Part shown: in pieces, positions 23,236-48,541 of the stretch
How the letters are laid out: every line of letters starts with the position of its first letter
How positions within the stretch are numbered: the first letter of the stretch is position 1
Virus record (IMG/VR): IMGVR_UViG_3300003523_000012
Coordinates: 29,904-93,903 of that record
Source: a virus
Lineage: Duplodnaviria > Caudoviricetes
DNA length: 64,000 bases
Direction: 5' to 3' (one strand)
Program-made: the position numbers and the translations under genes
The notes under the pieces: generated by a model
Databases searched by the model: none
Told to the model about the DNA's origin: nothing
The model's input: only the letters and a program-made list of their open reading frames with translations

Positions 23236-23246
23236 CAAATTAATAT

Positions 23247-26017: not shown

Positions 26018-26020
26018 CAA

Positions 26021-26360: not shown

Positions 26361-26366
26361 TTTTTT

Positions 26367-26440: not shown

Positions 26441-26450
26441 CTTTTTTCTC

Positions 26451-26478
26451 GTTAACTTCTATCTTATTGATATATATT
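26451..26478 (+). promoter_or_regulatory. putative phage promoter GTTAA-N17-TATATT
   Basis: exact motif. Confidence 0.7.
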
Positions 26479-26508
26479 AGACATGTAATAACCAATAATA
26501 TTAAGAAT

Positions 26509-26808: not shown

Positions 26809-26834
26809 TAAAAATATTAAGTCATGTGCAAGTT

Positions 26835-27104
26835 ATGAAATCAATATTAAAATTTATTAATGAATCTGAAAAGAAATATGATAATTTTCTTAATTTGCCT
26901 CCTATAACAGAATTAGGAGATGGTGAATATGATTGTGCTATTTGGGGACACAGTGTTGCTTATGACGGTAAGAAATATTATTCAGAAATTGGTATAATGA
27001 ATATTTATCCTATCAAGATAAAGATAATCATCAAAGATAAAAAAGAAAGATTTGGAGATTCAGATAATCTTCAAAGAGCGGAATTAAAAAAACTTTTCGA
27101 TTAA
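26835..27104 (+). CDS. hypothetical protein with T4 capsid-targeting-like N-terminus
   Basis: MKSILKFINE-S. Confidence 0.6.
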   Translation: MKSILKFINESEKKYDNFLNLPPITELGDGEYDCAIWGHSVAYDGKKYYSEIGIMNIYPIKIKIIIKDKKERFGDSDNLQRAELKKLFD

Positions 27105-27187
27105 TTATAATCACTATCAAATCTATATAGTTAGAAATGGTGGGAAGAAATTGAAAAGCAAAAGTTGAACTAATAAAAATAAAGACT

Positions 27188-27463
27188 ATGTGCAAATATT
27201 GTGAAGCTTTGACATCGGACAAGATGGATTCATACCATCACAAATATAGAGAATTACTTCCTATCACTACCGATACTAGAGACTATAGTGAGTATGATTC
27301 AATGGCAGTAATCATGCCTCCAACACCTATCTCTTTGAGACGACATGAAGAAGATGGTTTGGTATCTAATTTGAATGTGTTCTTCTATGATGATCATGCA
27401 CGAGTGGTGAACTTTTGGATCCCTATCAAGTATTGCCCAATGTGTGGAAAGGAGATACAATAG
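27188..27463 (+). CDS. small Zn-binding phage protein
   Basis: MCKYC...IKYCPMCG. Confidence 0.8.
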   Translation: MCKYCEALTSDKMDSYHHKYRELLPITTDTRDYSEYDSMAVIMPPTPISLRRHEEDGLVSNLNVFFYDDHARVVNFWIPIKYCPMCGKEIQ

Positions 27464-27524
27464 ATTTTAGAAATTCTTAAAAATAGAAGATGTTTGGAAA
27501 AGAAAAGGAAGTAAAATATAATAT

Positions 27525-27596
27525 GCCCTTGTAGTTCAATAGATAGAATAGCGGTCTTCTAAACCGTTGATAGGAGTGCAATTCTTCTCAGGGGTA
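27525..27596 (+). tRNA. tRNA-Arg(TCT)
   Basis: loop CTTCTAA; T loop gtgcaat. Confidence 0.85.
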
Positions 27597-27634
27597 CTAA
27601 CAGATCCAATTATATGGATCAAAAATAGAATCAT

Positions 27635-32721: not shown

Positions 32722-33918
32722 ATGAAAAATTTAAAATCAGTTTTATTAGAAAAACGAGATATAAGAAAAGAAATTACTGGTATTCATTCTAATCCAGAAG
32801 GAACTAGACTTGTATTTGGATTAGTAGATTATGATAATATTGAAAAAAGATTTAATAATACAGAATGGCTATCAGCAAAAGCAACTAGTCCAACAGCAAA
32901 AACTGAAATCCAAGAAAAATTTACAGCTTTAATATTTAATACTTATAAAGAAAATCTTGATCAAATGGATAAGGAATTAACTATTGAGAATCTTCCTTAT
33001 GCATTGAAAATAGATAAAAATAATGAATTGTGGTTGACTTCTGTAAAAGGTCAAGTAAAAACTATTGTAGAGTTTTTAAAAAAAGAAAAATGGAATATTT
33101 CTAATCTTATTGCTGTTCATTATTTAGAAGATGATCCTATTGCAAGAAATATAATAGTTTTACACTCATCATTATCTGGAACTCTTAATAATAGACCAAA
33201 AGATGCCATAGACCCATCCGATATAATTATATATGACAAGACAAAAGTAAAAGTTATCAATAAATTTCAAGACACTCTTATGAGTAATGGAGGAACTAAT
33301 AAAGAATTTCTTTCAGAGTATAAAGCACTAATAAAATTATTAATATCAAATCATTTATATGTTGGTGTTTCATTAAAGAAAGGTGATACTTTTAGTGCTC
33401 ATTATAATAACTATATAGAAGCTCCAGATGCATATTCTAATGTAGAAATAACAAATATAACTAAAACTCCACAAAATCTAAAAGTATCTTTTTCTGCATA
33501 TAATGAAACACTAAATAAAAATACTAATTTTGATTTTAGAATAAGCGCTCAAGGTGGAAGACATGCAGTAATAGAACTTCAAGGATATAAATATGCTCAA
33601 GGTGGAAAAGGAACTTGGGCAATTTTAGATGCAAGAAATCCTAAAGAACAATTAGAATTAGATTTTAATGATAAAGAAGGAATAGTTAAATATCCTAAAT
33701 TTCTAATTAATTCAGATTGGGATCAAAAATTGATAAATGACTTTTTAGAAGAAGAGCATCCAGTAACTAAAAACAATAATCACACAATTGATACTGAGAT
33801 ATTTAATATTTTTAAATATATAATTGAAAACAATCAACAAAGTGTAATAGCATTAATGTATTATTGCGCTAAAATTGGTGACGAATGCGCACCGTATCTT
33901 ATGATATCTCCAAATTAG
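32722..33918 (+). CDS. hypothetical protein, possible PD-(D/E)XK nuclease-fold internal virion protein
   Basis: MKNLKSVLLE N-terminus; DPSDI...GVSLKK; AT-rich. Confidence 0.5.
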   Translation: MKNLKSVLLEKRDIRKEITGIHSNPEGTRLVFGLVDYDNIEKRFNNTEWLSAKATSPTAKTEIQEKFTALIFNTYKENLDQMDKELTIENLPYALKIDKNNELWLTSVKGQVKTIVEFLKKEKWNISNLIAVHYLEDDPIARNIIVLHSSLSGTLNNRPKDAIDPSDIIIYDKTKVKVINKFQDTLMSNGGTNKEFLSEYKALIKLLISNHLYVGVSLKKGDTFSAHYNNYIEAPDAYSNVEITNITKTPQNLKVSFSAYNETLNKNTNFDFRISAQGGRHAVIELQGYKYAQGGKGTWAILDARNPKEQLELDFNDKEGIVKYPKFLINSDWDQKLINDFLEEEHPVTKNNNHTIDTEIFNIFKYIIENNQQSVIALMYYCAKIGDECAPYLMISPN

Positions 33919-33921: not shown

Positions 33922-34350
33922 ATGAAAAAACCTTTGATAAATAGAAAAAATTTGCATCGTGCACATGTCTCAGATATAATGCTCTTAGAAAATATTACTT
34001 TCTTTGATCTTCAAGAAGGTGACTTTTGCATGACAAAAGAGAGAGATGACAATATGTACCTTGTTGTAGATGTAGGATCTATAGATTATCTGCATCCAAA
34101 TACAGAGCACAATATCTTCGCGCTCCAGCCATCTCCTGGTGGAAGATCACAATATATTGCATTTGATGATTTTGATGAGGATCTCAATTGCACAATAGAC
34201 CCTAAGTACAGTATCATTTCAGTATACAGAAGCAGAAATGAATTGACACCAAAAGACTTTGACAACGAAAAGAAATTAGGCTCACTATTCAAAGAGATGC
34301 TTCAAGAGATTCAAAAGTCCTATCCAGAAAAGTTTAAAAATACATATTAA
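33922..34350 (+). CDS. LISK..IHRAH-leader family protein (divergent)
   Basis: MKKPLINRKNLHRAHV. Confidence 0.8.
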   Translation: MKKPLINRKNLHRAHVSDIMLLENITFFDLQEGDFCMTKERDDNMYLVVDVGSIDYLHPNTEHNIFALQPSPGGRSQYIAFDDFDEDLNCTIDPKYSIISVYRSRNELTPKDFDNEKKLGSLFKEMLQEIQKSYPEKFKNTY

Positions 34351-34352
34351 TA

Positions 34353-34757
34353 ATGAGATCACTTAAAGCTTTGATATCAAAAAGAACTATCAATAGAGCA
34401 CATGTGATCCATAATGTCCCTTTGAAGAAGTCTGAACTTCAAGATGGAGACCTCTGCATGCAAAGAGACAATTCTATCGGTATATATAATTCTAAAACTG
34501 ATTTTGATGCTGGTGGTTTTAGACCCGTTCAAGAGGATGACCCTACTTTGATATTCTATACTCCAAATCAGATACCTAGATTTCAGCATTTTCCAACAAA
34601 ATACTATACAGATGATCTTAAAGACCAAGATGGTGAATATCGATTCGATATTGTAAAAGTAATTAGAGGATTGTTCAATCCAAAAGATGTAAATGACCCA
34701 AAGAAAGTGAAAGAATTTCTAGGGAATAAGTCTAATTATAAAAACTATTTTATATGA
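34353..34757 (+). CDS. LISK..IHRAH-leader family protein
   Basis: MRSLKALISKRTINRAHV. Confidence 0.85.
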   Translation: MRSLKALISKRTINRAHVIHNVPLKKSELQDGDLCMQRDNSIGIYNSKTDFDAGGFRPVQEDDPTLIFYTPNQIPRFQHFPTKYYTDDLKDQDGEYRFDIVKVIRGLFNPKDVNDPKKVKEFLGNKSNYKNYFI

Positions 34758-35164
34758 AATCTTTAAAAGCTTTAATATCTAAGAATACTGTACATCGTGC
34801 ACACGCCTGGCACACTATTCCTTTGAAGAAGTCTGAGCTTAGAGATGGAGACCTATGCATGCAACGTGACAATTCAGTTGGTATATATAATTCTAAACCT
34901 AATCTTAAAGCATTTGATCTGAAACAAGGGCCAGATTATAATGAACCAACTTTGATATTCTGTCCCGATGAATTAGAATATGGTAATTTTCAACAGTATA
35001 AAATAAAATACTATACAGACGATCTTGAAGATAAAAATGGTGAAGAAGAGTTTAATGCTATAAGAATTGTTAGAGGCTTGTTTGATCCAAAAGATGTGAA
35101 TGACCCAAAGAAAGTAAAAGAATTTTTAGAGGATAATTCTAACTATGAAAAATATTTTAATTAA
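34754..35164 (+). CDS. LISK..IHRAH-leader family protein
   Basis: MKSLKALISKNTVHRAHA; paralog of neighbours. Confidence 0.85.
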   Translation: MKSLKALISKNTVHRAHAWHTIPLKKSELRDGDLCMQRDNSVGIYNSKPNLKAFDLKQGPDYNEPTLIFCPDELEYGNFQQYKIKYYTDDLEDKNGEEEFNAIRIVRGLFDPKDVNDPKKVKEFLEDNSNYEKYFN

Positions 35165-35581
35165 ATGAAATCATTAAAAGCCTTGATATCAAAGAGCACT
35201 ATACATCGTGCACACGTCTGGAAGGCTATTTCTTTGAAGAAGTCTAATCTTCAAGATGGAGACCTATGCATGCAAAGAGACAATTCTATTGGTATCTATA
35301 ATTCTAGAGCTGACTTTGATGCATTTAATCTAACTCGAGATGGAATAACTCTGAATGGGCCAACTTTGATATTCTATACTCCAGGTAAATCAAGACATAG
35401 TGATTTTCAACATTATCCAATACAATATTATACAGATGATCTTGAAGATAGAGATTATGAAGAAGAATATGATGTTATAAAGATTGTTAGAGGCTTGTTC
35501 AATTCAAAAGATGTGAATGACCCGAAGAAAGTGAAAGAATTTCTAGAGAATAATTCTAACTATGAAAAATATTTTAATTAA
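35165..35581 (+). CDS. LISK..IHRAH-leader family protein
   Basis: MKSLKALISKSTIHRAHV. Confidence 0.85.
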   Translation: MKSLKALISKSTIHRAHVWKAISLKKSNLQDGDLCMQRDNSIGIYNSRADFDAFNLTRDGITLNGPTLIFYTPGKSRHSDFQHYPIQYYTDDLEDRDYEEEYDVIKIVRGLFNSKDVNDPKKVKEFLENNSNYEKYFN

Positions 35582-35908
35582 ATGAAATCATTAAAAGCAT
35601 TAATATCTAAAAAGACTATACACCGTGCACATCCTGGATCAAATCTAATATATGTAGTTCTTCTTTTTCCAGGAGATGAGTTTGATGGTATGGAGAACAT
35701 AGAAACCATCCATGATGGATCTGGGTACAATTGGAAACTATTGACTTGGGAACAAGCAAAAAAAATTCTTCCATTCAAGCACAAAAACTCTAAGATACGC
35801 AGATCCCCTTATGCTACTAAAGAAGAGACTATTGATGCTATGTACAAATATTCTAAAGAGGGGATACTTAAGAAATTCCTAGAGATTGGACCAAAAGAGT
35901 TTGACTAA
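35582..35908 (+). CDS. LISK..IHRAH-leader family protein (second body type)
   Basis: MKSLKALISKKTIHRAHP. Confidence 0.85.
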   Translation: MKSLKALISKKTIHRAHPGSNLIYVVLLFPGDEFDGMENIETIHDGSGYNWKLLTWEQAKKILPFKHKNSKIRRSPYATKEETIDAMYKYSKEGILKKFLEIGPKEFD

Positions 35909-35929
35909 TAGATTATAAATATATAAGAG

Positions 35930-35955
35930 ATGGTGGCCAAATGGCCACCATTTTT
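35930..35955 (+). terminator. intrinsic terminator
   Basis: atggtggcca-aa-tggccacca plus T tract. Confidence 0.75.
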
Positions 35956-36006
35956 GTTAATGTTGGAATGCATAGCATATGTTATCAATGACAAAACACA
36001 ATAACA

Positions 36007-36129
36007 ATGAATGACTTGAATGGATTGCCTATTTGGGCACAGGTTTTGCTAGGTGCTGTATTCCCAATTTCTATATTGGTAGGTATGATCTTTATCATTG
36101 TCATTGAGAGACTTTTGAGAGGAAAATAG
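36007..36129 (+). CDS. 40-aa single-pass membrane protein
   Basis: MNDLNGLPIWAQVLLGAVFPISILVGMIFIIVIERLLRGK; GTTAA-N17-TATGTT at 35956-35983. Confidence 0.6.
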   Translation: MNDLNGLPIWAQVLLGAVFPISILVGMIFIIVIERLLRGK

Positions 36130-36195
36130 GATTTTTTGTTAATTTTGAAAAGATAAAGCATATATTTGAATTGAACTTATAAACTTTATAGCAAT

Positions 36196-36927
36196 ATGAC
36201 ATTAGAAGATATTAAAGATAGTTTAAATGGGCTTGAAGATCTTAAAGAACTTGAAGCAATTGACATTAATGACTATGTAGAAGATGATCCTGAGACTCAA
36301 GAAGATGATCAGTACAATTATTTTGTAGCTTCAATGGCTATCAACCTTCTTGATGATGCATCATTCTACTGCATTGATAAAGACTTCAAAAGTCATGCAG
36401 TGTGTGTCATCAAAGACAAAGTCATCACTCTATATTTCCCTAACAATAAAATCACAGTATGCCCAGATACAGATTTCCTTATAGATTTCTTGACTAAGAA
36501 GTCTTTGAGACTGAAGCGCATCAAGAAATTCTGGAAGAAGTTCAACCCAAATCCATTCAAGCGAGACACTGGAGACTGCACTCTCAGAGCTTATTGTGCA
36601 GCATTCAACATATCTTGGAACTGTGCTTATGACATTGCTTCTAAAAGAGCTAAAGATGAAGGCTTTATCTTTAGTGACAAGAAGATTGTTAACAAGATTC
36701 TCACTGAAGTTTTCAAGTGTCAACTCTCTTCTTTCTACAACAAGAAGATGGTGAAAGCCAAAGACAGAGTCACAGTGAAGCAATGGGCTATGGCAAATCC
36801 TTATGGAACTTACATCTGCCATATCAATGGACACATTGTGACTATCAAGAATGGCAAGTACTATGACTCTTGGGATTGTGGTGAGAGAAAAGTGTCTGAA
36901 GTCTATTTAGTTCCTGATGAAAAATAA
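36196..36927 (+). CDS. papain-like Cys peptidase-fold protein
   Basis: GDCTLRA...GHIVTI..GKYYDSWD; promoter motif at 36138-36166. Confidence 0.6.
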   Translation: MTLEDIKDSLNGLEDLKELEAIDINDYVEDDPETQEDDQYNYFVASMAINLLDDASFYCIDKDFKSHAVCVIKDKVITLYFPNNKITVCPDTDFLIDFLTKKSLRLKRIKKFWKKFNPNPFKRDTGDCTLRAYCAAFNISWNCAYDIASKRAKDEGFIFSDKKIVNKILTEVFKCQLSSFYNKKMVKAKDRVTVKQWAMANPYGTYICHINGHIVTIKNGKYYDSWDCGERKVSEVYLVPDEK

Positions 36928-36994
36928 AAAGAGAGATGATAATACCAAATTGGATAATTAAAATATTATATGTTATTTTTAAAATGTTCTAAAA

Positions 36995-37318
36995 ATGAAA
37001 AAATCAACCCTTATTGCAGCTTTGATATTTCTGGCAATTACTGCCATAGCATTGTTGACCTCAACCCTTTTGCAATCTTGCTCTACTTCATATACTCCTC
37101 CAGCTAATAAAGAAGTAGTTAAGCCTGACACTTTACTTCATTATACTAATGTTAATAGGAATTTACATACCTCTTATAAAGAGATTGATGATGTTCTCAA
37201 TTTTGAGTATGAGGGTCACAAGTATATCCAATTCAATGTGTATTACAATCGTGGATTTGGCTTGAGTGTCCTTCATGATCCTAATTGTCCTTGTTTGCAA
37301 TCTAAAGATACTTTATAA
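36995..37318 (+). CDS. lipoprotein
   Basis: signal peptide ending LLQSC; C-terminal HDPNCPC. Confidence 0.7.
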   Translation: MKKSTLIAALIFLAITAIALLTSTLLQSCSTSYTPPANKEVVKPDTLLHYTNVNRNLHTSYKEIDDVLNFEYEGHKYIQFNVYYNRGFGLSVLHDPNCPCLQSKDTL

Positions 37319-37320
37319 TC

Positions 37321-37716
37321 ATGAGACTATGCTGGAAAATAAAAGATTGGTGGTTTGATATTCGCATGTGGTGGCAAAGAAAGACTCGAGGCTATTCAGA
37401 CATCGAAGTTTGGAATCTTGATGATTCTATTTGCAAGTGGGTCTTGCCTAGACTAAAAGCTTTTAGAGAAAGCACTATTGGTTATCCTAATGTTCCTGGT
37501 AAATGTGACACATTTGAAGATTGGCAAGCTATGGTTGATGAGATGATCTTTGGATTTGATTGGGCAATGAAAGAAGATGATTGGTATCATGAAAATGTGT
37601 TTTATAAGACTGGAAAAGAAAAAGAAGAAGCTTTAGAAGTATTTAATAATACAAGAGATAGAGCTCAAAAAGGTAGAGAATTATTTGGCAAGTGGATGAT
37701 GCATCTTTGGTGGTAG
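37321..37716 (+). CDS. conserved phage hypothetical protein (Trp-rich)
   Basis: RGYSD.EVWNLD...LPRLKAF...G.ELFGK...LW. Confidence 0.75.
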   Translation: MRLCWKIKDWWFDIRMWWQRKTRGYSDIEVWNLDDSICKWVLPRLKAFRESTIGYPNVPGKCDTFEDWQAMVDEMIFGFDWAMKEDDWYHENVFYKTGKEKEEALEVFNNTRDRAQKGRELFGKWMMHLWW

Positions 37717-37773
37717 AATGGAAAGATGATATCTATGATAGAAAGAAATAGAGAAAGATATGCTAATACATTG

Positions 37774-37805
37774 AAGGAGAGCTTAACTAGCTCTCCTTTT
37801 TTTTT
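37774..37805 (+). terminator. intrinsic terminator
   Basis: aaggagagct-taact-agctctcctt plus T tract. Confidence 0.8.
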
Positions 37806-37865
37806 GTTCGTTAAATATAAGAAAAGTGGAATATGTTTTTAATGTAAATTGATAAAATTAGAATT

Positions 37866-38357
37866 ATGGAGAACTCAATTATACTAAATGAAAGTATCAG
37901 TGGAATGACTCTTTACTCTTTTGATGTAAGATCTGATAAGGAGACCAGAAAGATTATTAGAGATAATATACCTTACAACTTTGCTGGTGTGTATATTTTC
38001 ACAGATGGTGGAAATAATCTCTATGTTGGACAAACTGGAGATATGATGAATCGCATGCTTGACCACATTTGTTCTATAACTTCAAAACAAAAGAGATTGA
38101 ATTCTACTCAGTTATTTATTAGAAATAGTGCAAAGAAAGTCTATATCTTTTGCGGTCCTGACCTTATGGAAGGACAAGTCAAGTGGTTGGAATCCAAACT
38201 TATAGAGATGATAACCAACAATGGAAAGTATCACCTTGTAAACTCTTCTCCATCTCAATATCCGAATATTCCTTCATGGGCAAAGCCTCATATCGATGAA
38301 GCATTAGAGAATATCATAAGCTACACTCAATTAGCTGGTTTAGATTATCTTAGCTAA
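37866..38357 (+). CDS. GIY-YIG nuclease family protein
   Basis: GVYIF...LYVGQT...R..DH...LE..LI...N; promoter motif at 37810-37837. Confidence 0.8.
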   Translation: MENSIILNESISGMTLYSFDVRSDKETRKIIRDNIPYNFAGVYIFTDGGNNLYVGQTGDMMNRMLDHICSITSKQKRLNSTQLFIRNSAKKVYIFCGPDLMEGQVKWLESKLIEMITNNGKYHLVNSSPSQYPNIPSWAKPHIDEALENIISYTQLAGLDYLS

Positions 38358-38552
38358 CTTTATAATAACTTCTAATGGAGGATCTTCTGAAAGAAGGTCC
38401 TCTAATTGTTTATCCAGCTCAGTATTAGTGACATCTATATAGTCATGACCTATCCAACCTTTCACTGATAATGTGTTCTTTCTAGGCTCTGAGAAATTCA
38501 TGTAGAGTCTTCCATCTTTGTCTCTGGCAATCCAAGCTGACACTTCTTTCAT
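38340..38552 (-). CDS. small hypothetical protein
   Basis: MKEVSAWIARDKDGRLY. Confidence 0.65.
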   Translation of the reverse strand: MKEVSAWIARDKDGRLYMNFSEPRKNTLSVKGWIGHDYIDVTNTELDKQLEDLLSEDPPLEVIIKLAKII

Positions 38553-38587
38553 TTTCTCTTTATTATTAGACATATAATAATGAAGAA

Positions 38588-39055
38588 ATGCCAAATAGAA
38601 ACATAAAACAACTAAAACCATCTAAGAACTCACCATTCAAGCAAGGCTACATCAATCCAAAGTCTTGCAAGAAAGTGTTTGAGTCTCAGAGGAACAAGCC
38701 AATCATATTCAGATCTTCTTATGAGAGAAAGTTTGTGTGGTGGTGTGAGACTTCTGACTTAGTGAAGCGCTGGGCTTCCGAGCCATTCTCTATAAACTAC
38801 TACAACCCATTAGACAAGAAGACTCACAACTACTGGCCAGACTACTTAGTAGAGTTCAATGATGGATCAATAATGGTTGTTGAGGTGAAGCCATGGTGCC
38901 AGACACAGAAACCAGATGCTCTATATGGTCCTGGTGATAGGGTATTTGATGACTATGTGAAGAACATGCAAAAGTGGAAAGCTGCGCGTGAGTTCTGTGA
39001 AGCCAGAAACATGCAATTTAAAGTGATTACCGAAAGGACAATATCGAAGCTATGA
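38588..39055 (+). CDS. T4 gp4-like head completion nuclease (TnsA-like)
   Basis: FKQG, RSSYE, WASEP, YWPD, EVKP..QT..P, KWKAA, F.VITE. Confidence 0.85.
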   Translation: MPNRNIKQLKPSKNSPFKQGYINPKSCKKVFESQRNKPIIFRSSYERKFVWWCETSDLVKRWASEPFSINYYNPLDKKTHNYWPDYLVEFNDGSIMVVEVKPWCQTQKPDALYGPGDRVFDDYVKNMQKWKAAREFCEARNMQFKVITERTISKL

Positions 39056-39122
39056 GATATTTACCGAAAGAACAATATCAAAACTTTGAGATTTATCGAA
39101 AAGTATTTCAAAACTCTAAGAT
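39027..39122 (+). repeat. three degenerate ~31-nt tandem repeats
   Basis: ttaccgaaaggacaatatcgaagctatgagat / ttaccgaaagaacaatatcaaaactttgagat / ttatcgaaaagtatttcaaaactctaagat. Confidence 0.7.
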
Positions 39123-39156
39123 CATATTATATTATATCTATAATCAATAATTATCC

Positions 39157-39420
39157 ATGGATAGCTACAAGATAATAGTTACAAAGAATGACAAGCAGAT
39201 TCTCCAATCAGAGACAGTGTTTCCTAGCTTTGTTGGCGAGGATCACTCAATAAGATTCGCTACCTTAGAGCTTCTGACGGAGATACTAGAGACTCATCCG
39301 AGTTTCTTTGATGACATATATGACATGCTAGTCAGATTACAAGACAAGGCAATTGAAGGACAAAGCATACGAAAGAAAAACATATGTCAGTGCAAATGCT
39401 TGAATGGTCAGGATGAATAA
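39157..39420 (+). CDS. hypothetical protein
   Basis: 87-aa ORF. Confidence 0.65.
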   Translation: MDSYKIIVTKNDKQILQSETVFPSFVGEDHSIRFATLELLTEILETHPSFFDDIYDMLVRLQDKAIEGQSIRKKNICQCKCLNGQDE

Positions 39421-39464
39421 TATCTTGACCTTTTCTATTTTAATACAAATAACTTTTTATCGAT

Positions 39465-40559
39465 ATGAACAAGTGCACTTTGCTTGTTGATGGAAACTGG
39501 CTCCTTATGAGTCGATTTGCTATGAACAAAGAGGGGTTTCTCGTGGATAACCCTAGTTTTGAGAAAGAGCTTGCTAAGAATGAGTGTGTCCAGCTGATGT
39601 CAAAGTCTATTGGTCTAGTGTTGTCTAGATTTGAAGGGATCATTGACAACATGATCTTAGTCTGTGATGGGCAATCTTGGAGAAAGAAAGTCTCTAAGCC
39701 AGCATCATTAGATGCAGACTATAAAGGCACTCGCGTGCGTGAGGAAGAGCTTGACTGGGATTGTATCTTTGATTGTCTTAGAATTCTAGAAGACAAGATC
39801 ACTAAGCTTGGATTCACAGTCTCACACACATTCAATGCTGAAGGTGATGATGCTATCTGGTACTGGAAATCTAAATTGAACCATGATGGGTGCAACTGTG
39901 TCATCTGGTCTTCTGACAATGACTTGAAGCAATTAGTCTCTTATGACAAAGGTGTGTTCACTGTGTGGTACAATGATCGTTATGGCTTGTTTGCTAGTGA
40001 GAAAGCTGGCTTGAGCTCTGATGATGACTTAGACTTCTTCATGATGGACTCTGAGATGCAGAAGACTAATGCAATACTAGAGTCTATGCAAGACAAAGGT
40101 GAGATCAACTTGAAGTATATCAACCCTGAAGATATAGTGATGGAGAAGATCATCTGTGGTGACAAGTCAGACAACATCAAAGCCGTAGTCCGTATTGGCA
40201 AGAATGGAAAGACTTACTCAGCTACTCCTAAGATGTGGAGTGAAGTCAAAGAAGAGCTAGGCATAAAAACTCTAGATGACTTCTTTGCTAATGAAGATGC
40301 TATTCTTGAGAGTCTTTACAGTCTTAAAAAGTTCAGAGGAACCACACTCACTCTTGAAGATATCCATGAGCAGTTTGATTACAACAGCAAACTGGTGTGG
40401 CTAGATGACTCAACTATCCCTCAAGAAGTCCAAGAAGGCATTGCTATGGTTCCTTATGTGGATAATGGTGATCTAGACATGCTTAAGATGGAGTCTACTA
40501 TAGTTGACCAGAAGGAGCAATCTGAAGTAGAAGACCTCATTGAAGATCTGCCATTCTAG
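39465..40559 (+). CDS. 5'-3' exonuclease / T4 RNase H-like flap endonuclease
   Basis: LLVDGN, SWRK, YKGTR, EGDD, SSDNDLKQL, GDKSDNI. Confidence 0.9.
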   Translation: MNKCTLLVDGNWLLMSRFAMNKEGFLVDNPSFEKELAKNECVQLMSKSIGLVLSRFEGIIDNMILVCDGQSWRKKVSKPASLDADYKGTRVREEELDWDCIFDCLRILEDKITKLGFTVSHTFNAEGDDAIWYWKSKLNHDGCNCVIWSSDNDLKQLVSYDKGVFTVWYNDRYGLFASEKAGLSSDDDLDFFMMDSEMQKTNAILESMQDKGEINLKYINPEDIVMEKIICGDKSDNIKAVVRIGKNGKTYSATPKMWSEVKEELGIKTLDDFFANEDAILESLYSLKKFRGTTLTLEDIHEQFDYNSKLVWLDDSTIPQEVQEGIAMVPYVDNGDLDMLKMESTIVDQKEQSEVEDLIEDLPF

Positions 40560-40606
40560 ACAGATTTCACATAACTATGTGATAATCAATACACTTTTTT
40601 GAAAAA

Positions 40607-40702
40607 TGGCGGCAGGGAGCCGATTATGCATGGGATGATTAATTTATCATCCCTTTCTTTTTCCGCCATCTAGGGCGGGCTGAGATATCTCCTCCGCCGC
40701 CC
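40607..40702. repeat. dispersed GC-rich element, copy 5
   Basis: gggatgattaatttatcatccc core; ttccgccatctagggcgggctgag identical to copy 6. Confidence 0.85.
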
Positions 40703-40817
40703 TGCCAGTTCACTTACCAACCCAGGATCCTGTAAATTTTTCTCTATCCAGGTTATGACTTGTTGTTGGATTGTCTTTATTATATATAGAGAAAAAAATA
40801 AAGAATTTGCTAGATCA

Positions 40818-43049
40818 ATGAAATCTATAAAGGATGAGATACTTTTAGTCATACCTTACATCAATGCAGGACAAGGAAATGAGCTTGAGCTTTCACTTAC
40901 AGGATGGAGAAAATTTTGCAAGTCGCCATTGAGAATCATTGTGATCGGTGACTATAATGAGTGTATAGAAGGAAAAGCAGAGCATATAGCATTTGAAAGA
41001 ATTAAAGATGCTCCTGGACAATATATCCCTAATATAGATGTAGCTAGAAAGCTAGACTATATTTATGAGAAGTTCCATAATGAGTATGACCATTTTGTCC
41101 TTGCTAATGATGATGAGTACCCTATAAAAGACTTTGACTGGAAATTCTTGACTAATGTGTACTTCTTGCAACCTAGCTTCATTGGCAACTCTGTAGCTCC
41201 AGTGAACTACTGGATCCACGATATGTCTAAGACTAGAGTTGCGCTGGATAAAGAGAAGAAAGGACATATCAATTTTTGCAACCACCATCCTTTCTATTTT
41301 GATATGGAGAAGTTCCACGATATGAGTGTAAAATTTGATCTAGCAAACAACTCTCTGATTCGTGAGAACCTCTATTACAACTATTATGAGATCAAGCATA
41401 TCTGCAATGTCAATGAGGTCAGATATGGGCAGTGGGACCAGAAAATGGATGGGTTGAACAATGCATTGAAAAACACAAAAATAAAATTTGTGTGCAACTC
41501 TACTACAGGCTGGAGCAAAACTTTAGAAGACACTATAAGGAAACATTATATTAGTAAAAGTGTTGAAGTAATTAAAGAGAACAAATTAGAAGTTTCAGAT
41601 GAGATAATAGTATCATTCACTTCTTGGAAGAAAAGAATTAATCTTTGTGCTAAAATGGTTGATAGAATGATGAACCAAACTATCAAGCCTAATAAAATTA
41701 TTTTGAATCTATCTACAGATGAGTTTCCTAATAAAGAAGAAGAATTACCTAAAGAATTAGTAGAGAAACAAAATGATGTGTTTGAGATCTATTGGGTGAA
41801 AGAGAATACTAAAGTATATAAAAAGATTATTCCTACATTAGAAAGATTTCCTAATGGTATAATTATTAGTATAGATGATGATATTGAATACCCTAATAAT
41901 GCAATAGAAATATTATATAAAAAATATAAAGAGACTAATAGATTAAATCCCATCTCTGCTGGAACATGGGACTGGGAAGGAGGAGTAGTATCTCATCTTG
42001 GATGCCTTACACTATTCACTAAAGATATGTTTGGTCCATACTTAAAAGACTTATATGAAAATGTAGTTCTTAAAGAAGGTATAGATACTATTCCTTTTGA
42101 TGATGCGATATTTACATATTCTATTCTATTGAATAAAAGAAAATATATTAGAGTAAATGAAATTACGAGTGTTCAACTAGTTAAAAGAAGTCCAGAGCAT
42201 AATAACAATAGACTTCTTCATCAATTGAAAGATACATATTCTATTTCATTAAATAGAGAGCATAAGATTCTTAGAGAATATATTAAAAATACTTATAATA
42301 AAACATATGATGATCTAATACATCCAAAAGAAGTAGAAAAATATTATTCAATAGGAAAAAAATATAATGATGAAAAAGCTATTATAAGTCTTACTTCTTG
42401 GAGAGCTAGAATCAATACTGTTTATAAAACTATTGATTCATTGTTATATAACTGTCCAGGCTTCCATATAGTATTGGTTCTTAGTGAAGAAGAATTTCCT
42501 AAAAAAGAAAATGAACTTCCAAAGTCTCTAATGAAATATGTTAATGAAAATAAAATTGAAATTCTTTGGGTATACAAGAATTATAAAGCTTTCAAAAAGG
42601 TATTATTTACTATGGATAAATATAAAGACGTTCCTATAATAAGTGCTGATGATGATTGTATATATCTTAGAAATTATGCAAAAGATCTTTATGATGAATG
42701 GTTAAGACATAAAACATGTTTTATCTCAATTTATGGAGAAAAAAGAAAGGATGGTGTTACACATACTGGTGGAGCAGCAACATTATATCCTCCATACATA
42801 TTCAAAGAAAATGGAATAAATTGTTTAACTGATGAAATTATACAGTATACAAATCAAGATGATGATTATTATACATGTTTAAAAGGAAAAATGAAACTAT
42901 TTGATGTAAGAATAATTAAAATTAGATGGAGAGATGTATATAAATTTCATAATGAAATAGAACCTCTTAATAAAGAAATAAGAAAAAAGAGTAAAAGTGA
43001 ACGAGAAAGAATATTTGAGTTTATAAATAAAAATATTGTTATATCTTAA
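40818..43049 (+). CDS. multi-domain glycosyltransferase (three GT-A-like modules)
   Basis: LANDD module plus two IIVSFTSW..RI...IISIDDD modules. Confidence 0.75.
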   Translation: MKSIKDEILLVIPYINAGQGNELELSLTGWRKFCKSPLRIIVIGDYNECIEGKAEHIAFERIKDAPGQYIPNIDVARKLDYIYEKFHNEYDHFVLANDDEYPIKDFDWKFLTNVYFLQPSFIGNSVAPVNYWIHDMSKTRVALDKEKKGHINFCNHHPFYFDMEKFHDMSVKFDLANNSLIRENLYYNYYEIKHICNVNEVRYGQWDQKMDGLNNALKNTKIKFVCNSTTGWSKTLEDTIRKHYISKSVEVIKENKLEVSDEIIVSFTSWKKRINLCAKMVDRMMNQTIKPNKIILNLSTDEFPNKEEELPKELVEKQNDVFEIYWVKENTKVYKKIIPTLERFPNGIIISIDDDIEYPNNAIEILYKKYKETNRLNPISAGTWDWEGGVVSHLGCLTLFTKDMFGPYLKDLYENVVLKEGIDTIPFDDAIFTYSILLNKRKYIRVNEITSVQLVKRSPEHNNNRLLHQLKDTYSISLNREHKILREYIKNTYNKTYDDLIHPKEVEKYYSIGKKYNDEKAIISLTSWRARINTVYKTIDSLLYNCPGFHIVLVLSEEEFPKKENELPKSLMKYVNENKIEILWVYKNYKAFKKVLFTMDKYKDVPIISADDDCIYLRNYAKDLYDEWLRHKTCFISIYGEKRKDGVTHTGGAATLYPPYIFKENGINCLTDEIIQYTNQDDDYYTCLKGKMKLFDVRIIKIRWRDVYKFHNEIEPLNKEIRKKSKSERERIFEFINKNIVIS

Positions 43050-43884
43050 GAATACTACCAAGAAACAAATCAGTTTCTGGGTTTTTATATTGTTGAAAAC
43101 CTGCAGCAGGAAAAAATGTCAATTCACTTAAATAAGGATTAGCATCAATTTCATAAAAGTCTACTCTTACAAAATTAAAATCTTCAGATAATATTTTTGC
43201 ATATTTTTTCATTATATCAAAAGAAGAAGGCTTTTTATCTAAACTATTAGGATTATTTTGAACATCTGTTCTAGATATATCAACAAAATTAAAATCCATA
43301 TCATAATAATTTAAATGGAACCCTTTATTACCCCTATCATTTATTACTTGACAGTATTTTGGTTCTCCATTAAAACATAAGAATTTATAATCAGTTAGCT
43401 CACCATTACTTTTATCCTTTACAAACTTTTCGGCAAATATTTTTCTCTCTATTGGATAATATGCCATTTCTTTTCCATACCAAGACCAGTCTTTTGAAAG
43501 CCAACTTTCAAATTTCTTTTTTGCAGAAACTTTATCTAAAACACCATTTCTTACAATAATATTTGTATGTGACCCATGGTTTGTCTTAAGAACAAAATCT
43601 TTTGGAAGTTCTGAAAAATCTATATCATCAAATTTATCCCAAATTCCAATTATTGGTATGAATAAATCTATACCAAGTTTTGATTTACAATAATCTCTTA
43701 CAAGTATCTTGTCACTACATTTTATTTTCAATGGGTTACTATCATAAATTTTTAGCCATTGTATTTTTTCAGTAAGAGTTCTACAATTATTTAAATCAAG
43801 ATTCTTTCCTGTTTGTTTTTTATATAATCTTTTTAATTCAGGAATTTGTTTTTCACAAAAATTGATCCATTTATTATTTTCCAT
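43039..43884 (-). CDS. TupA-like ATP-grasp protein
   Basis: TEKIQWLK, DKILVRDY, FVLKTNHGS, DYKFLCFNGEP, VRVDFY, ELTFFP. Confidence 0.88.
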   Translation of the reverse strand: MENNKWINFCEKQIPELKRLYKKQTGKNLDLNNCRTLTEKIQWLKIYDSNPLKIKCSDKILVRDYCKSKLGIDLFIPIIGIWDKFDDIDFSELPKDFVLKTNHGSHTNIIVRNGVLDKVSAKKKFESWLSKDWSWYGKEMAYYPIERKIFAEKFVKDKSNGELTDYKFLCFNGEPKYCQVINDRGNKGFHLNYYDMDFNFVDISRTDVQNNPNSLDKKPSSFDIMKKYAKILSEDFNFVRVDFYEIDANPYLSELTFFPAAGFQQYKNPETDLFLGSILKI

Positions 43885-44665
43885 AATTAAAAAGTTTTTT
43901 ATATTTTTCCATTATTTCTGGATACGCATTCAAGACATTATTCAACCATATATCTCTTCTTTCATATCCATTTTTATCCTTCTGGTGTGACCATGCAACT
44001 AAGCCAGATTTTTTACCATTATTTGGATCTATATCTTCACCCCAACCATAACTACAATGAACAATTGGAATATTATTTTTTACTATCCATGGTTGAAACC
44101 AACATTCATCACTAATAGGTGAAGTTCTATCTCTTATTTCTTGATTTTCTTCTGTAAGACATTCTATTGGATATATATCAGATGGTATCATACTTTGTCC
44201 ACACCATCTATACTTATTTACATATGGAGGACCATCTTTTGGAGTAGGATTTCCATAAAGTATATGTTTTCCATTATATCTATGTTGATCATATCTATTA
44301 TAACACACAATAGAATTTGGATATTGTTGAGCTTTGTTGATAACAGTTTCTATAAGGCTTTTATCATAAAATACATCATCATCAATAAGGAATACATAAG
44401 CATCTTTAATGAATTTAAATATTTCATGTCTTTTATGGACATAAGTGTTTTTCTTTACCCATTTCAAATAAACATTTTCATTACTATTTATTAAAGAATT
44501 CAATTCATCTGGCAAATCATTTTTTTTATTTGGAAATTCTTCAATGCTTAGCCATAAATAAATTTCATCTGGTTTAAGTGATTGTTCATTCAATAAAGCA
44601 TTTATTGACTTAGATATGTTAATTATCCTTTTTGGATAACTTGTCATACTAACGACAATTTTCAT
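43874..44665 (-). CDS. glycosyltransferase (GT-A-like)
   Basis: IVVSMTSYPKRI...LIDDDVFY. Confidence 0.75.
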   Translation of the reverse strand: MKIVVSMTSYPKRIINISKSINALLNEQSLKPDEIYLWLSIEEFPNKKNDLPDELNSLINSNENVYLKWVKKNTYVHKRHEIFKFIKDAYVFLIDDDVFYDKSLIETVINKAQQYPNSIVCYNRYDQHRYNGKHILYGNPTPKDGPPYVNKYRWCGQSMIPSDIYPIECLTEENQEIRDRTSPISDECWFQPWIVKNNIPIVHCSYGWGEDIDPNNGKKSGLVAWSHQKDKNGYERRDIWLNNVLNAYPEIMEKYKKLFNYGK

Positions 44666-45620
44666 AATACTCTTTATTATTTTTGAACCACTCTATAAAT
44701 AATTTTACACCAACATCAATTTTAATAGATGGAATATAATTATAATGCTCTTTAAGCTTTGTACAATCAGCATAAGTTCTTATCACATCACCCTTTTGCA
44801 TTGGAGCATATTGTATAATAGCTTTTTTTCCAATATTCTTTTCTAATTCATAAATGAAGTCCATAAGATTGATTGGATTTGAACAACCTATATTATATAT
44901 TTCATGAGGTTCTTCTCTATTAATATTTACAATTTGAATGATTCCATTTACAATATCATCTATATAAGTAAAATCTCTAAACATATTCCCATTGTTGAAA
45001 ACCTTTATTGGCTTTTCATTTTCAATAGAACTAGCAAAAAGTGCAGGAGCCATATCTGGTCTTCCACTTGGTCCATATACTGTAAAAAATCTTAATCCTA
45101 TGCATTGTATTCCATATAATGTGGAATAACATTCTGCAAGTTCTTCATTGCTTTTTTTTGTTGCAGCATATAAACTTACAGGATTATCAGTTTTATCTTC
45201 TTCTTTAAATGGAATCTTTTTATTTTTTCCATACACACTACTTGAAGAAGCATATATAAATTTCTTAATATTGAAATGTCTACAACACTCTAGTATATTG
45301 AAAAATCCTATAATATTACTATTTATATATGTTTTTGGATTTTCTATGCTATATCTTACACCAGCCTGAGCTGCTAGATTTATAACAATATCAATTTTAT
45401 TATTTTTAAAAATTGAACTAATATTGTCATAATCACAAAGATCATATTTGTAAAATGAAAAGTTCTTAAAAGAATTCAATTCACTTAATCTATATTCTTT
45501 TAACTTTACATTATAATATGAATTCATATTATCTATTCCTATTACATGTTTTTTATTAGTTAAAAGAGATTTGCATAAATGATATCCAATAAATCCAGAA
45601 CACCCAGTGATTAAAATCAT
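44649..45620 (-). CDS. NAD-dependent epimerase, UDP-glucuronate 4-epimerase-like
   Basis: TGCSGFIG, LAAQAGVRYS, ASSSSVYG, YAATK, RFFTVYGP.GRPDMA. Confidence 0.92.
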   Translation of the reverse strand: MILITGCSGFIGYHLCKSLLTNKKHVIGIDNMNSYYNVKLKEYRLSELNSFKNFSFYKYDLCDYDNISSIFKNNKIDIVINLAAQAGVRYSIENPKTYINSNIIGFFNILECCRHFNIKKFIYASSSSVYGKNKKIPFKEEDKTDNPVSLYAATKKSNEELAECYSTLYGIQCIGLRFFTVYGPSGRPDMAPALFASSIENEKPIKVFNNGNMFRDFTYIDDIVNGIIQIVNINREEPHEIYNIGCSNPINLMDFIYELEKNIGKKAIIQYAPMQKGDVIRTYADCTKLKEHYNYIPSIKIDVGVKLFIEWFKNNKEYYENCR

Positions 45621-45622
45621 CT

Positions 45623-46036
45623 CTAAATATGCTTTTTTATCATCCTCTCTACAAGAGGTGACTGCAATATCATTAATATACTTTTCTCATCATGAATAGT
45701 CCCAAATACTTTCTCATCATATCTTAATACTATTTTGATGTCTGAGAATTCTGATTCATTGCTTTTTAAATAAGCATCAAAGTAGTCAACATTCACTAGA
45801 TCCCCTTCTTCAGTAAAGAACACACCATTTGGAAATAGTTTAGTGGAAGAATAAGGCAACCCTATATAGTCGGTCAATTCTCTTGGAGTGAGATACATAG
45901 CGGTAACCATGTTTCCATAGCTAGAGAAAGTCACAATGTCAAAAGGCATCAAGTCACTTTTCAAACAATCATTAGGATCTGGGACATGAGCTTTATGTAT
46001 AGTCTTCTTTGATATTAAAGCTCTAAGTGGTCTCAT
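45623..46036 (-). CDS. LISK..IHRAH-leader family protein
   Basis: MRPLRALISKKTIHKAHV. Confidence 0.85.
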   Translation of the reverse strand: MRPLRALISKKTIHKAHVPDPNDCLKSDLMPFDIVTFSSYGNMVTAMYLTPRELTDYIGLPYSSTKLFPNGVFFTEEGDLVNVDYFDAYLKSNESEFSDIKIVLRYDEKVFGTIHDEKSILMILQSPLVERMIKKHI

Positions 46037-46440
46037 ACTGTTTTCAATTTTTTTAATATTTCCGGGACTTCATCAGTAAGATAAGCTTTTAGTTCATCAG
46101 AATTCTTGAAATTCACTTCTTTAGCATACACATAATCGGCATTGAACTGATGTAATAATTTATTATATGGGAAGTTTTTGTAGCTTTTAATATCATTCCA
46201 TCCTATATCATGGTTATTGTCATATCTTATGAAGGCGTAATCACATGGTGTCGAAATAGAATTTATTATTTTACTTGCTATACTTGTTCTGACATATGTG
46301 TAACAAAATCCATTTTCTAAATGAATCAGATACCCTTCTTTCAAATCATCTAGTTTGAAATTACTAGCTGGAGACCATTTGCCACTTACATGTGCTCGAT
46401 GTATAGTATTTTTTGATATCAATGCTTTTAAAGGTCTCAT
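46033..46440 (-). CDS. LISK..IHRAH-leader family protein
   Basis: MRPLKALISKNTIHRAHV; paralog of 46437-46841. Confidence 0.85.
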   Translation of the reverse strand: MRPLKALISKNTIHRAHVSGKWSPASNFKLDDLKEGYLIHLENGFCYTYVRTSIASKIINSISTPCDYAFIRYDNNHDIGWNDIKSYKNFPYNKLLHQFNADYVYAKEVNFKNSDELKAYLTDEVPEILKKLKTV

Positions 46441-46841
46441 GCAAATTTTAGTTTTTTTAATATCTCAGGAACTTCATGAAAAAGATAAAATGCTAGTTCT
46501 GTAGAGTCTTTGAATTTCACTTCTTTGTCATACACATAATCGACATTGAATATTGGCATTACATGATCTGGAAAATCTTTGTAATCATTAACACCATTCC
46601 ATTTTATACCATTTTTTTCATCATATCTTACAAAGACATAATCACATCTTGATGTGAAATTAGGGTTTATCAATTTACCTGCTATTTTTGTTCTGGCATA
46701 TGTGTAGCACAATCCATTTTCTGTGTGAATCAGATATCCTTCTTTCAAATCATCTAGTTTGAAATTATAAGCTGGAGACCAGCTGTTTATATGCGCCCGA
46801 TGTATAGTATTTTTTGATATCAATGCTTTTAAAGGTCTCAT
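46437..46841 (-). CDS. LISK..IHRAH-leader family protein
   Basis: MRPLKALISKNTIHRAHI. Confidence 0.85.
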   Translation of the reverse strand: MRPLKALISKNTIHRAHINSWSPAYNFKLDDLKEGYLIHTENGLCYTYARTKIAGKLINPNFTSRCDYVFVRYDEKNGIKWNGVNDYKDFPDHVMPIFNVDYVYDKEVKFKDSTELAFYLFHEVPEILKKLKFA

Positions 46842-46845
46842 TCTG

Positions 46846-47166
46846 TTAGATTAATTTATTAGGATTCTCACATAGATCTAAAAGATCATCATGCATGCTA
46901 CCTTTTATAAAATGATAAAGTTCATCTCGTTTCTTTTCACTTTTGAAGACCTTAGTATCCTTATGTCTGAATGGATAGACCTTTTTGAAACCATCATAAT
47001 CTACAATATAAAAATTCCATTTATCACTACTTATAACTCTATTCCCTATAGAGCTGGCAATGTGTTCATCTTCTTCAAATGGAAAAATAACATAATTGTA
47101 AGTATTTACTGTATGTGCTCTATGCAATGTCTTCTTTGATATCAAAGCTTCTTTAAGTCGTTTCAT
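46846..47166 (-). CDS. LISK..IHRAH-leader family protein (second body type)
   Basis: MKRLKEALISKKTLHRAHT. Confidence 0.85.
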   Translation of the reverse strand: MKRLKEALISKKTLHRAHTVNTYNYVIFPFEEDEHIASSIGNRVISSDKWNFYIVDYDGFKKVYPFRHKDTKVFKSEKKRDELYHFIKGSMHDDLLDLCENPNKLI

Positions 47167-47564
47167 AAGTATTTCTTGAATTGTTTTTTAAAATCTTGAA
47201 GAGTATAAGTCTCTACCCAAGATTTCATTTTAAGATCAAATGAGTCCATGGCTCTAAGCATGTCTTCTAACTCTTTTACACTTTTAGTTGGATCTTTCAC
47301 AATATAGATGTGAGTGTACTCATCAGTTAAAGTGCCAATAATGCTTTTAAGCTCAGATTCAGTCAGTATGAAGTAGTGCCAATAATCAAAATCAGCAATC
47401 ACTATATGACCTATATTATTTTTTCTATTCCCATATCGACTATACTTTTGAGCATCAACACCAGTTGGATATAGTATGAATAGGCCATAAGGGAACTTGC
47501 TGTTTCCACTATGAGCTCTATTGATTGTCTTTTTAGATATCAAAGCTTCTTTAAGTTGTTTCAT
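47163..47564 (-). CDS. LISK..IHRAH-leader family protein (second body type)
   Basis: MKQLKEALISKKTINRAHS. Confidence 0.85.
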   Translation of the reverse strand: MKQLKEALISKKTINRAHSGNSKFPYGLFILYPTGVDAQKYSRYGNRKNNIGHIVIADFDYWHYFILTESELKSIIGTLTDEYTHIYIVKDPTKSVKELEDMLRAMDSFDLKMKSWVETYTLQDFKKQFKKYL

Positions 47565-47567
47565 AAT

Positions 47568-47891
47568 CTATATCAATGTTTTAGGATCTTTACAAAGCTT
47601 TACAAGATCATCATAACTACTTTTCTCTATAAAATCTAAAAGCTCATCCTCATCATTTGTTTCATATTTAAAAACATTAGTCTCTTTATCTTTAAATGGA
47701 TACACTTCCATTAATCCTTCATAATCAGTAATATACCATATCCAACCATCTTTATCTATGGTTTCTGAAAAAAGTAATTCAGCACATTTATCTTCATCCT
47801 CTTTAAATGCTCGAATAGCATAATTATAGCTTCCTTTAACATGTGCTCTATGCAATGTCTTTTTAGATATAAGTGCTTTCAATGGTCTCAT
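47568..47891 (-). CDS. LISK..IHRAH-leader family protein (second body type)
   Basis: MRPLKALISKKTLHRAHV. Confidence 0.85.
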   Translation of the reverse strand: MRPLKALISKKTLHRAHVKGSYNYAIRAFKEDEDKCAELLFSETIDKDGWIWYITDYEGLMEVYPFKDKETNVFKYETNDEDELLDFIEKSSYDDLVKLCKDPKTLI

Positions 47892-48541
47892 TTCTTCTCA
47901 GTTGGATTAGTATAGAAATATACACTTTCTTCATTCTTCATGTCTTCTAAGTTGTCACTAGAGTGCAGCACATTCCTCATGTCTGACTCACCCCACTCTT
48001 TTCTTATCTCATCTTTAAGCTTTGACACTTCATTGAAGACAGTTTTCATTTTCTTTTTGTTCATTGGCTTGAAGAGCATGCCAGTAGACAAGTCACTAGA
48101 CATATATTTCACTAAGTCATCGAAGAAAGACTCTTTCTTGTGGACAGCATACAAAGCTTTAGCTTCTTTCTCTAGAAGTTGCTTTGTCCTTGTAGCTACA
48201 AGCTCATACTTGTGCTCTTTGAACTTGTTGATGATTTGCTCACTGAGCTTCAAGAATCCTGGCTTGAGCACTACAAATATGTGCTTCCCTTCAGGGAACT
48301 CAATGGATTCTTCATCAGTATCTTCAAATTTAGCATAAGGAGTATTATACAGAGACTCTCTCAAGTATTCAGTCAAAGTCTTGCACTCTTTCACCATGAA
48401 CTCTTTTATCTCTTTATCAGTCATGTCTCCATCTGCTATATCTAGAACAGCTTTGTTGACTTTGTTTCGTGCTAGTTTGCCTTTGCGCACAGCATAAGCC
48501 ATGCAGAACAGTCTTTTTTGTGATTCACTTTTAGATGGCAT
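47888..48541 (-). CDS. ndk: nucleoside diphosphate kinase fused to an N-terminal DUF3008-like peptide
   Basis: FVVLKP, LYAVHKKESFFDDLVKYMSS, RNVLHSSD; N-terminus MPSKSESQKRLF. Confidence 0.8.
   Translation of the reverse strand: MPSKSESQKRLFCMAYAVRKGKLARNKVNKAVLDIADGDMTDKEIKEFMVKECKTLTEYLRESLYNTPYAKFEDTDEESIEFPEGKHIFVVLKPGFLKLSEQIINKFKEHKYELVATRTKQLLEKEAKALYAVHKKESFFDDLVKYMSSDLSTGMLFKPMNKKKMKTVFNEVSKLKDEIRKEWGESDMRNVLHSSDNLEDMKNEESVYFYTNPTEKK

Follow-up and report, generated by a model that had tools for sequence, protein, structure and literature searches.

The DNA analysed here, referred to as the window, is a stretch of 64,000 nucleotides corresponding to bases 29904-93903 of one virus contig (L001) 93,903 bp in length, whose completeness CheckV puts at 44%. 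It holds two tightly packed arrays of small genes, five on the plus strand (33922-35908) and six on the minus strand (45623-47891), and all 11 open reading frames (ORFs) begin with the same basic, 17-residue peptide, MKxLK(E)ALISKxTIHRAH, which we call the leader. The original prediction had described these 11 ORFs in two arrays, together with a divergent leader on the first gene and recent tandem duplications. An ORF check and a hidden Markov model (HMM) of the leader recover the same genes, the leader of the first gene is visibly divergent, and the recent duplicates are 57-65% identical (Table 1). The bracketed Glu is absent from the leaders of nine of the 11 genes.

We searched all six-frame ORFs of the 94-kb contig for further copies, using both a regular expression and the leader HMM. 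The canonical copies were recovered at E-values of 1e-11 to 1e-14, which excludes chance. Eleven leader proteins therefore stands as the count for the window, but not as the total: the contig has 19 copies or variants among its ~111 genes, eight of them outside the window. These eight comprise four more canonical copies (minus-strand starts at contig 8634, 15816, 16247 and 16676), a shortened copy at contig 14976 that begins Pro-Leu-Ile-Ser-Lys, and three copies of a variant version (contig 313, 1005 and 1452) in which the Glu is present, Asn replaces Ser9 and the terminal His is missing. The body of the first plus-strand gene, that is, the protein that follows its leader, is linked to the body encoded at contig 14527-14976 at an E-value of 5e-8.

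Table 1. Leader genes and associated features. Positions are those of the window unless marked L001 (whole contig); minus-strand genes start at the higher number. CTS, capsid-targeting sequence.
Feature	Position	Strand	Description
Leader gene 1	33922..34350	+	142 aa; divergent leader (15 aa, ends R-A-H); type I body
Leader gene 2	34353..34757	+	134 aa; canonical leader; type I body
Leader gene 3	34754..35164	+	136 aa; canonical leader; type I body; tandem duplicate of genes 2 and 4
Leader gene 4	35165..35581	+	138 aa; canonical leader; type I body
Leader gene 5	35582..35908	+	108 aa; canonical leader; type II (alpha/beta) body
Intrinsic-terminator-like hairpin	35926..35955	+	strong, 13 pairs; closes the plus-strand array
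Leader gene	47568..47891	-	107 aa; canonical leader; type II body; modelled with AlphaFold2
Leader gene	47163..47564	-	133 aa; Glu-containing leader (L-K-E-A-L-I); body stands alone in its own cluster
Leader gene	46846..47166	-	106 aa; Glu-containing leader; type II body
Leader gene	46437..46841	-	134 aa; canonical leader; type I body
Leader gene	46033..46440	-	135 aa; canonical leader; type I body; modelled with AlphaFold2
Leader gene	45623..46036	-	137 aa; canonical leader with Lys for Arg15; body stands alone (singleton)
Glu-terminated CTS-like N-terminus	26835-27104	+	pattern match
Gene directly upstream of plus array	32722..33918	+	398 aa; Glu-terminated CTS-like N-terminus; not a leader gene
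Glu-terminated CTS-like N-termini	L001 6225-6422, 6932-7234, 7251-8192, 8650-9027, 14976-15401	-	pattern match

Among 42 distinct canonical sequences, nine of the 17 positions are invariant (M1, L4, A6, L7, I8, K10, T12, A16 and H17), K5, S9 and R15 are nearly so, and positions 2, 3, 11, 13 and 14 vary. When codons for the same leader residue were compared in pairs, 42% of the pairs used different codons, compared to 58% in random draws from the genome's codon usage. Synonymous change has thus gone about three quarters of the way to saturation in a peptide that hardly varies. Arg is encoded by AGA, CGT, CGA, CGG and CGC, Ala by all four of its codons, and the Leu and Ser codons vary too. Upstream of the leader genes, no conservation of the DNA was found between non-duplicate copies, and homogenization of leader DNA within the arrays by local gene conversion was not significant in a permutation test (p 0.085). 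This much synonymous change beneath a nearly fixed peptide is the result of purifying selection at the protein level and not of recent gene conversion, in line with the earlier claim that it is the peptide that is conserved, with synonymous variation in the DNA.

Two codons of the leader are fixed. The Ile8 codon is ATA in all 19 copies (for example at window 34374-34376), with flanking codons that vary freely, and the Lys5 codon is AAA wherever Lys occurs, in 13 of 14 canonical copies (for example at 34365-34367). These codons may reflect a nucleotide-level constraint or a codon-specific effect. The phage has four CAU-anticodon tRNAs, and the window carries 32 tRNA genes at 17814-27597, including a CUA-anticodon (amber-reading) tRNA at 20504-20576.

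We then compared the bodies without their leaders. BLAST sorted 50 leader-stripped proteins into 17 clusters, of which hhalign merged only clusters 0, 1, 3 and 10 into one superfamily (probabilities 40-89%). This superfamily, type I, holds six of the 11 window bodies and 11 of the 19 on the contig. The type II bodies have no detectable link to type I, two window bodies stand alone, and a YdcK/hexapeptide beta-solenoid follows the variant leader at contig 310-1005. At least three unrelated body classes can be distinguished (beta-barrel with helix, alpha/beta and beta-solenoid), in addition to singletons. The bodies are acidic to neutral (isoelectric point 4.3-7.8) in 16 of the 19 proteins, and the leader itself carries a charge of +4 to +5.

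AlphaFold2 models of the two main types differ in topology. The type I model, built on a 28-sequence alignment, has a mean predicted local distance difference test score (pLDDT) of 84.5, with values above 90 from about residue 21 and of ~49 for residues 1-20; its body combines a small beta-barrel and a long helix at the C-terminus. The type II model, built on four sequences, has a mean pLDDT of 68.6, with residues 4-20 below 50, and its body runs beta-alpha-beta-beta-alpha-beta followed by helices. The leader makes no contacts with the body in either model and is predicted to be disordered, lying outside both modelled folds. BLAST, hhalign and the two models agree with the earlier description, in which the bodies were of two or more unrelated types. 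The original prediction would have been refuted by a single fold with the leader as an integral part; as far as the evidence goes, the bodies appear not to share one fold, and the leader appears to be part of neither modelled fold.

Searches of fold and family databases gave few leads on the bodies. Foldseek found no convincing match for either model in the PDB or BFVD (all E-values above 0.01), and the weak fold neighbours (VIA wide) are KOW/SH3-like small beta-barrels for type I, with Z of at most 4.8, and ferredoxin-like folds for type II, with Z of at most 4.2. Sequence searches of the ESM Atlas and the PDB returned nothing usable for the leader proteins. Among the bodies taken to these searches, none matched any family or known fold, with the exception of the YdcK/hexapeptide-type body that carries a variant leader.

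To follow the leader beyond the contig, a profile made from the first 35 residues of 16 leader copies was scored against 1.84 billion representative proteins. It matched 35 proteins, all of 94-149 aa, with the leader at residue 1 or 2 in every one, and none has a name or a Pfam family. In this search, leader-bearing proteins are confined to one phage lineage. At least 17 leader clusters have members whose longest ENA/Logan contig is 228,887 bp, and one more relative contig has 235,862 bp. Consequently, the lineage is that of a jumbo phage, whose complete genome has many leader genes. When the bodies alone were used as queries, only near relatives were found, each with a leader or a decayed leader.

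Other searches added no relatives. None of the 10 leader proteins scanned against Pfam and PHROGs could be assigned to a family, Megablast and tblastn matched the leader proteins to none of 50,697 phage records, a look-up by sequence did not find the leader on any of the other genomes screened, the leader DNA pattern had zero matches in IMG/VR and zero in the JGI metagenomes, and a DNA-polymerase query found no kin in IMG/VR. The first 50 kb of Flavobacterium phage MaF61, the best polymerase match, contain no comparable leader family. A looser pattern, M-x-x-L-K-E-A-L-I, had 53 matches in IMG/VR that were single and unrelated, and a recurring 190-aa match was dropped because it is internal to a longer family. 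In one record, P0020, from an ENA contig of 714 bp, sequence that is acetyltransferase-like as judged by eye follows a canonical leader and the beginning of a type I body; it is probably an assembly chimera or a truncated record.

A sister lineage, represented by four short JGI contigs (L003-L006) and the proteins P0046-48, has arrays of small genes that carry their own leader version, M-I-x-L-(K/R)-E-A-L-I-(G/N)-(R/K)-x-N-x-x-x-A-(S/K). The body of contig gene 1452 is 76-89% identical to those of P0046-48, while the leaders are only 50-61% identical; likewise, the type I orthologue P0006 has a body that is 63% identical and a leader that is 35% identical. Within the contig's own lineage the reverse is found, with leaders more conserved than bodies. 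Such a block change of leader version across unrelated bodies is predicted by co-evolution with one lineage-specific partner.

Further analysis of the sister contigs shows the leader inside longer proteins. In the two-module fusion ORF at L005 346-1038, the second half aligns with the whole of P0030 from the leader on (48% identity, E 4e-31), and in the one at L004 506-1192, the first half aligns with the whole of window gene 47163-47564, which is orthologous to the first module. Both fusions have an internal leader core at the module junction, (V/I)-x-E-(A/S)-L-I, which is the context where a protease of the T4 gp21 type cuts. Because the core is kept at the junctions, the motif is constrained even away from the N-terminus. 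The ORF at L005 1419-2102 is a further two-module fusion with the leader core at its junction. At L003 884-1471, a TnpB/OrfB-like transposon gene stands right beside a leader gene.

The phage itself is a remote relative of T4. Its gp43-like DNA polymerase aligns over 92-98% of its length, at ~25% identity, with T4-like phages and with Flavobacterium phage MaF61, and a 566-aa contig protein matches the T4 baseplate wedge family (gp6-like). The internal proteins of T4 carry N-terminal propeptides of 10-19 residues, which in IPII and IPIII read MKTYQEFIAE; these direct the proteins into the scaffolding core and are cut off after Glu by gp21, and the diverse internal proteins of T-even phages have only this capsid-targeting sequence (CTS) in common (PMC3012670, PMC9026906, PMC8442874). 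Mutagenesis of IPIII assigned targeting to CTS residues 4 and 7 and processing to residues 8 and 10, and Asp at position 10 blocked the cutting while targeting was kept (PMC9026906). We read the N-termini of the internal proteins, gp22, gp67 and gp68 directly from the T4 record, in which IPI lacks a Glu at position 10 and its propeptide is 19 aa long.

We found that seven non-leader proteins of the contig begin with a Glu-terminated, CTS-like pattern, M-[KR]-x-[LIV]-x-x-hydrophobic-hydrophobic-x-E, compared to 0.04 expected from N-terminal composition; after the 463 internal Met residues, the pattern never occurs. The seven include an HD-domain hydrolase, and several are interleaved with leader genes. 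The leader matches the same pattern at positions 1, 2, 4, 7 and 8, with or without its inserted Glu, and has Ser, Asn or Lys at position 10 in place of the Glu. L4 and L7 (A7 in the Glu forms) are invariant in the 42 canonical copies, although the pattern is too short for statistics and the shortened variants do without these residues. Given the kinship with T4, the classical CTS-like N-termini on the same contig and the common hydrophobic positions 4, 7 and 8, the leader is probably not an entirely new signal.

Taken together, these results make us fairly confident that the leader serves as an address or docking peptide, portable, disordered and conserved as protein, for a common partner that is specific to the lineage. 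The original prediction of a new sorting or docking signal is thus supported in part, in that the peptide is portable, conserved at the protein level, disordered in the models and changed in version as a block between lineages; it is not fully borne out as to novelty, as the peptide looks like a derivative of the CTS. That the leader is a derived T4-type CTS carrying its cargo into the prohead core is a serious possibility and the best of the explanations considered, which we hold as somewhat short of probable. In that case, the first part of the leader (Met, Lys/Arg and the hydrophobic residues 4, 7 and 8) would bind the prohead scaffolding core, and the leader proteins would be packed inside the capsid, to be ejected along with the DNA when the host is infected. 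With the P1 Glu gone, most copies would not be cut, and the basic tail (+4 to +5) would probably stay on the packaged protein. In T4, the internal proteins are basic and have their DNA affinity in their bodies; here, where the bodies are acidic to neutral, it may come from the retained tail.

Several observations weigh against this reading. The Glu is missing from 14 of the 19 contig leaders and 37 of the 42 canonical sequences, and with it the (L/I)-x-E cleavage site of T4; we also found no consistent (L/I)-x-E downstream of the leader, where T4 IPI would place it. The leader is basic and its bodies acidic to neutral, whereas the CTS is acidic and T4 bodies are basic. The shortened variants begin (A/P)-L-I-S-K, having lost the supposed targeting residues and kept the rest, and the core of all leader versions is A-L-I-[SNG]-[KR]-x-[NT] and not the CTS-like start. 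The resemblance to T4 comes down to about four positions of a short peptide. On the contig, 44% complete, no capsid, portal, scaffold or protease gene was found, and PF03420 and PF07068 are absent. The gene neighbourhoods are mixed, with a helicase, a nucleoside diphosphate kinase (NDK) and sugar enzymes. The search for late-promoter signals was negative, with no enrichment of the T4 motif TATAAATA; a scan for sigma-70 promoters was uninformative on the timing of expression. Finally, a low pLDDT is no proof of disorder.

A bolder proposal, possible but rather doubtful as a whole, is that two N-terminal address systems operate side by side in this phage: a cleaved, acidic, Glu-terminated CTS and a basic, mostly uncleavable leader that remains on its cargo. 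The second would load a large arsenal of diversified small effectors, 19 of them in under half of the genome, into the particle or onto a lineage-specific hub, and hub and leader would co-evolve as matched versions.

The portability, predicted disorder, selection and lineage versions of the leader hold equally if it docks onto a common partner other than the prohead core, with the leader as a virion-surface anchor of the kind that fixes several receptor-binding or decoration proteins to a single adaptor, or with the partner being a phage or host machine such as a chaperone, a polymerase or a membrane complex. The gene neighbourhood adds to this alternative: the minus-strand array comes after a BspA-type leucine-rich-repeat protein and before tail-fibre-like genes, and two of the variant-leader proteins are beta-solenoids, a fibre-like fold, adjoining a 1038-aa structural-type protein. 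That the conserved core differs from the CTS-like start fits as well. We nevertheless consider it somewhat unlikely, since most bodies are globular domains of 90-120 aa rather than fibre or spike modules, no adaptor was identified, and both the kinship with T4 and the CTS-like pattern speak for the capsid. A signal for processing or turnover, whether as a degron that times proteolysis or as a protease site that frees modules from precursors, would account for the leader core lying exactly at the fusion junctions with its hydrophobic-x-Glu context kept, and for the shortened variants, which begin about where such a cut would fall. However, most copies on the contig have no Glu and sit at a true N-terminus with nothing upstream to release, and no protease gene was identified on the contig, which makes this explanation quite unlikely.

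The charge of the leader on acidic to neutral bodies, together with its disorder in both models, would also suit a basic arm that tethers the bodies to phage or host DNA or RNA with no protein partner involved. Charge alone does not call for nine invariant positions, with Leu, Ala, Ile, Thr and His among them, and the leader of the sister lineage is less charged but equally conserved; we regard such an arm as improbable. It is highly improbable that the proteins are one diverged family whose slow-evolving N-terminus belongs to a single fold, or that the leader DNA is an mRNA-level element, for example in translation initiation. The size of the type I superfamily speaks for a single family, but type II, the beta-solenoid and several singletons show no BLAST or hhalign similarity to it, and the two models place the leader outside two different topologies. 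The fixed Ile8 and Lys5 codons speak for an mRNA-level element, but the extent of synonymous change, about three quarters of saturation, and the lack of conservation upstream speak against it.

Several other features accompany the arrays. Directly upstream of the minus-strand array, and overlapping its first gene by four bases, a gene at window 47888-48541 (minus strand) encodes an NDK domain with an N-terminal extension of ~85 aa. Between the arrays, at window 42000-46000, lies an island of low GC content (25-28% compared to ~36%) whose genes include TupA-like ATP-grasp, glycosyltransferase-like and NAD-dependent epimerase-like ones; it is co-oriented with the minus-strand array, with no terminator between them. 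The region between the arrays also holds GIY-YIG and TnsA-like endonuclease genes at 37866-38357 and 38588-39055, both on the plus strand, which are probably homing-type elements. Elsewhere on the contig, an Ad2-adaptor-like gene and three leader genes are closely preceded by a minus-strand gene at L001 17542-18189, whose 215-aa product contains sigma-70 region 2.

That diversified small phage proteins can carry one short N-terminal address was established for T4 in the 1990s, and the principle is not categorically new. What is new is the sequence of the leader, which is basic and mostly without Glu, the presence of a classical class beside it in one genome, its scale, and the existence of matched versions in different lineages. 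If the leader does serve as an address for packaging or docking, roughly a sixth of the genes would encode cargo of a single delivery route. No other such repertoire described for a T4-type phage would come near it in size, and the bodies would form a catalogue of candidate injected proteins with new folds, which might serve host takeover or anti-defence. A short peptide that needs no cleavage would then also offer a simple way of tagging foreign proteins to be loaded into phage particles, a use to which the T4 CTS is already put, and two address classes in one genome with matched versions between lineages would amount to a natural experiment on the co-evolution of signal and receptor.

Compared to other known N-terminal signals, the leader stands closest to the T4 CTS. 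It is not a Sec, Tat or lipoprotein signal peptide, as it has no hydrophobic stretch (at least seven residues are needed) and a charged or polar residue occurs every two to three positions. Phages with multiple receptor-binding proteins use conserved N-terminal anchors joined to interchangeable C-terminal bodies, and the leader likewise is an N-terminal docking element on interchangeable bodies; however, such anchors fold into domains and belong to large trimeric spikes or fibres, whereas here a 17-aa peptide precedes globular bodies of 90-130 aa. The RxLR and PEXEL motifs are host-targeting leaders on diversified effector families of eukaryotic pathogens. They share with our leader only the logic of one short N-terminal address on many fast-diversifying bodies, an analogy with no relation in sequence, organism or mechanism.

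The Glu-containing form of the leader, L-K-E-A-L-I-S, also resembles the starts of T4 gp22 (L-K-E-Q-L-I) and gp67 (L-I-E-A-I-K-S), which lie in a gp21 cleavage-motif context, although the resemblance covers six to seven residues and has no statistical support. An L-x-E at positions 4-6 occurs only in the Glu-containing forms and in the sister-lineage version, and gp22, gp67 and gp68 are scaffold components, unlike the diversified small leader proteins. The likeness to the internal proteins of T4 is broader. In both systems, a short peptide at the extreme N-terminus (10-19 aa in T4, 17 aa here), with a Met-Lys start and hydrophobic residues at positions 4, 7 and 8 outside the shortened variants, is placed on small unrelated proteins encoded in variable gene clusters of a T4-type myovirus, and on the T4 side these bodies are diversified, injected proteins that counter host defences. 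The leader differs in its conserved extension, S-K-x-T-I-H-R-A-H, which has no counterpart in T4, and in its numbers, with 19 genes in 44% of a genome compared to between three and a handful in T-even phages. It differs, too, in that the Glu-terminated classical class and the leader class coexist in the same genome.

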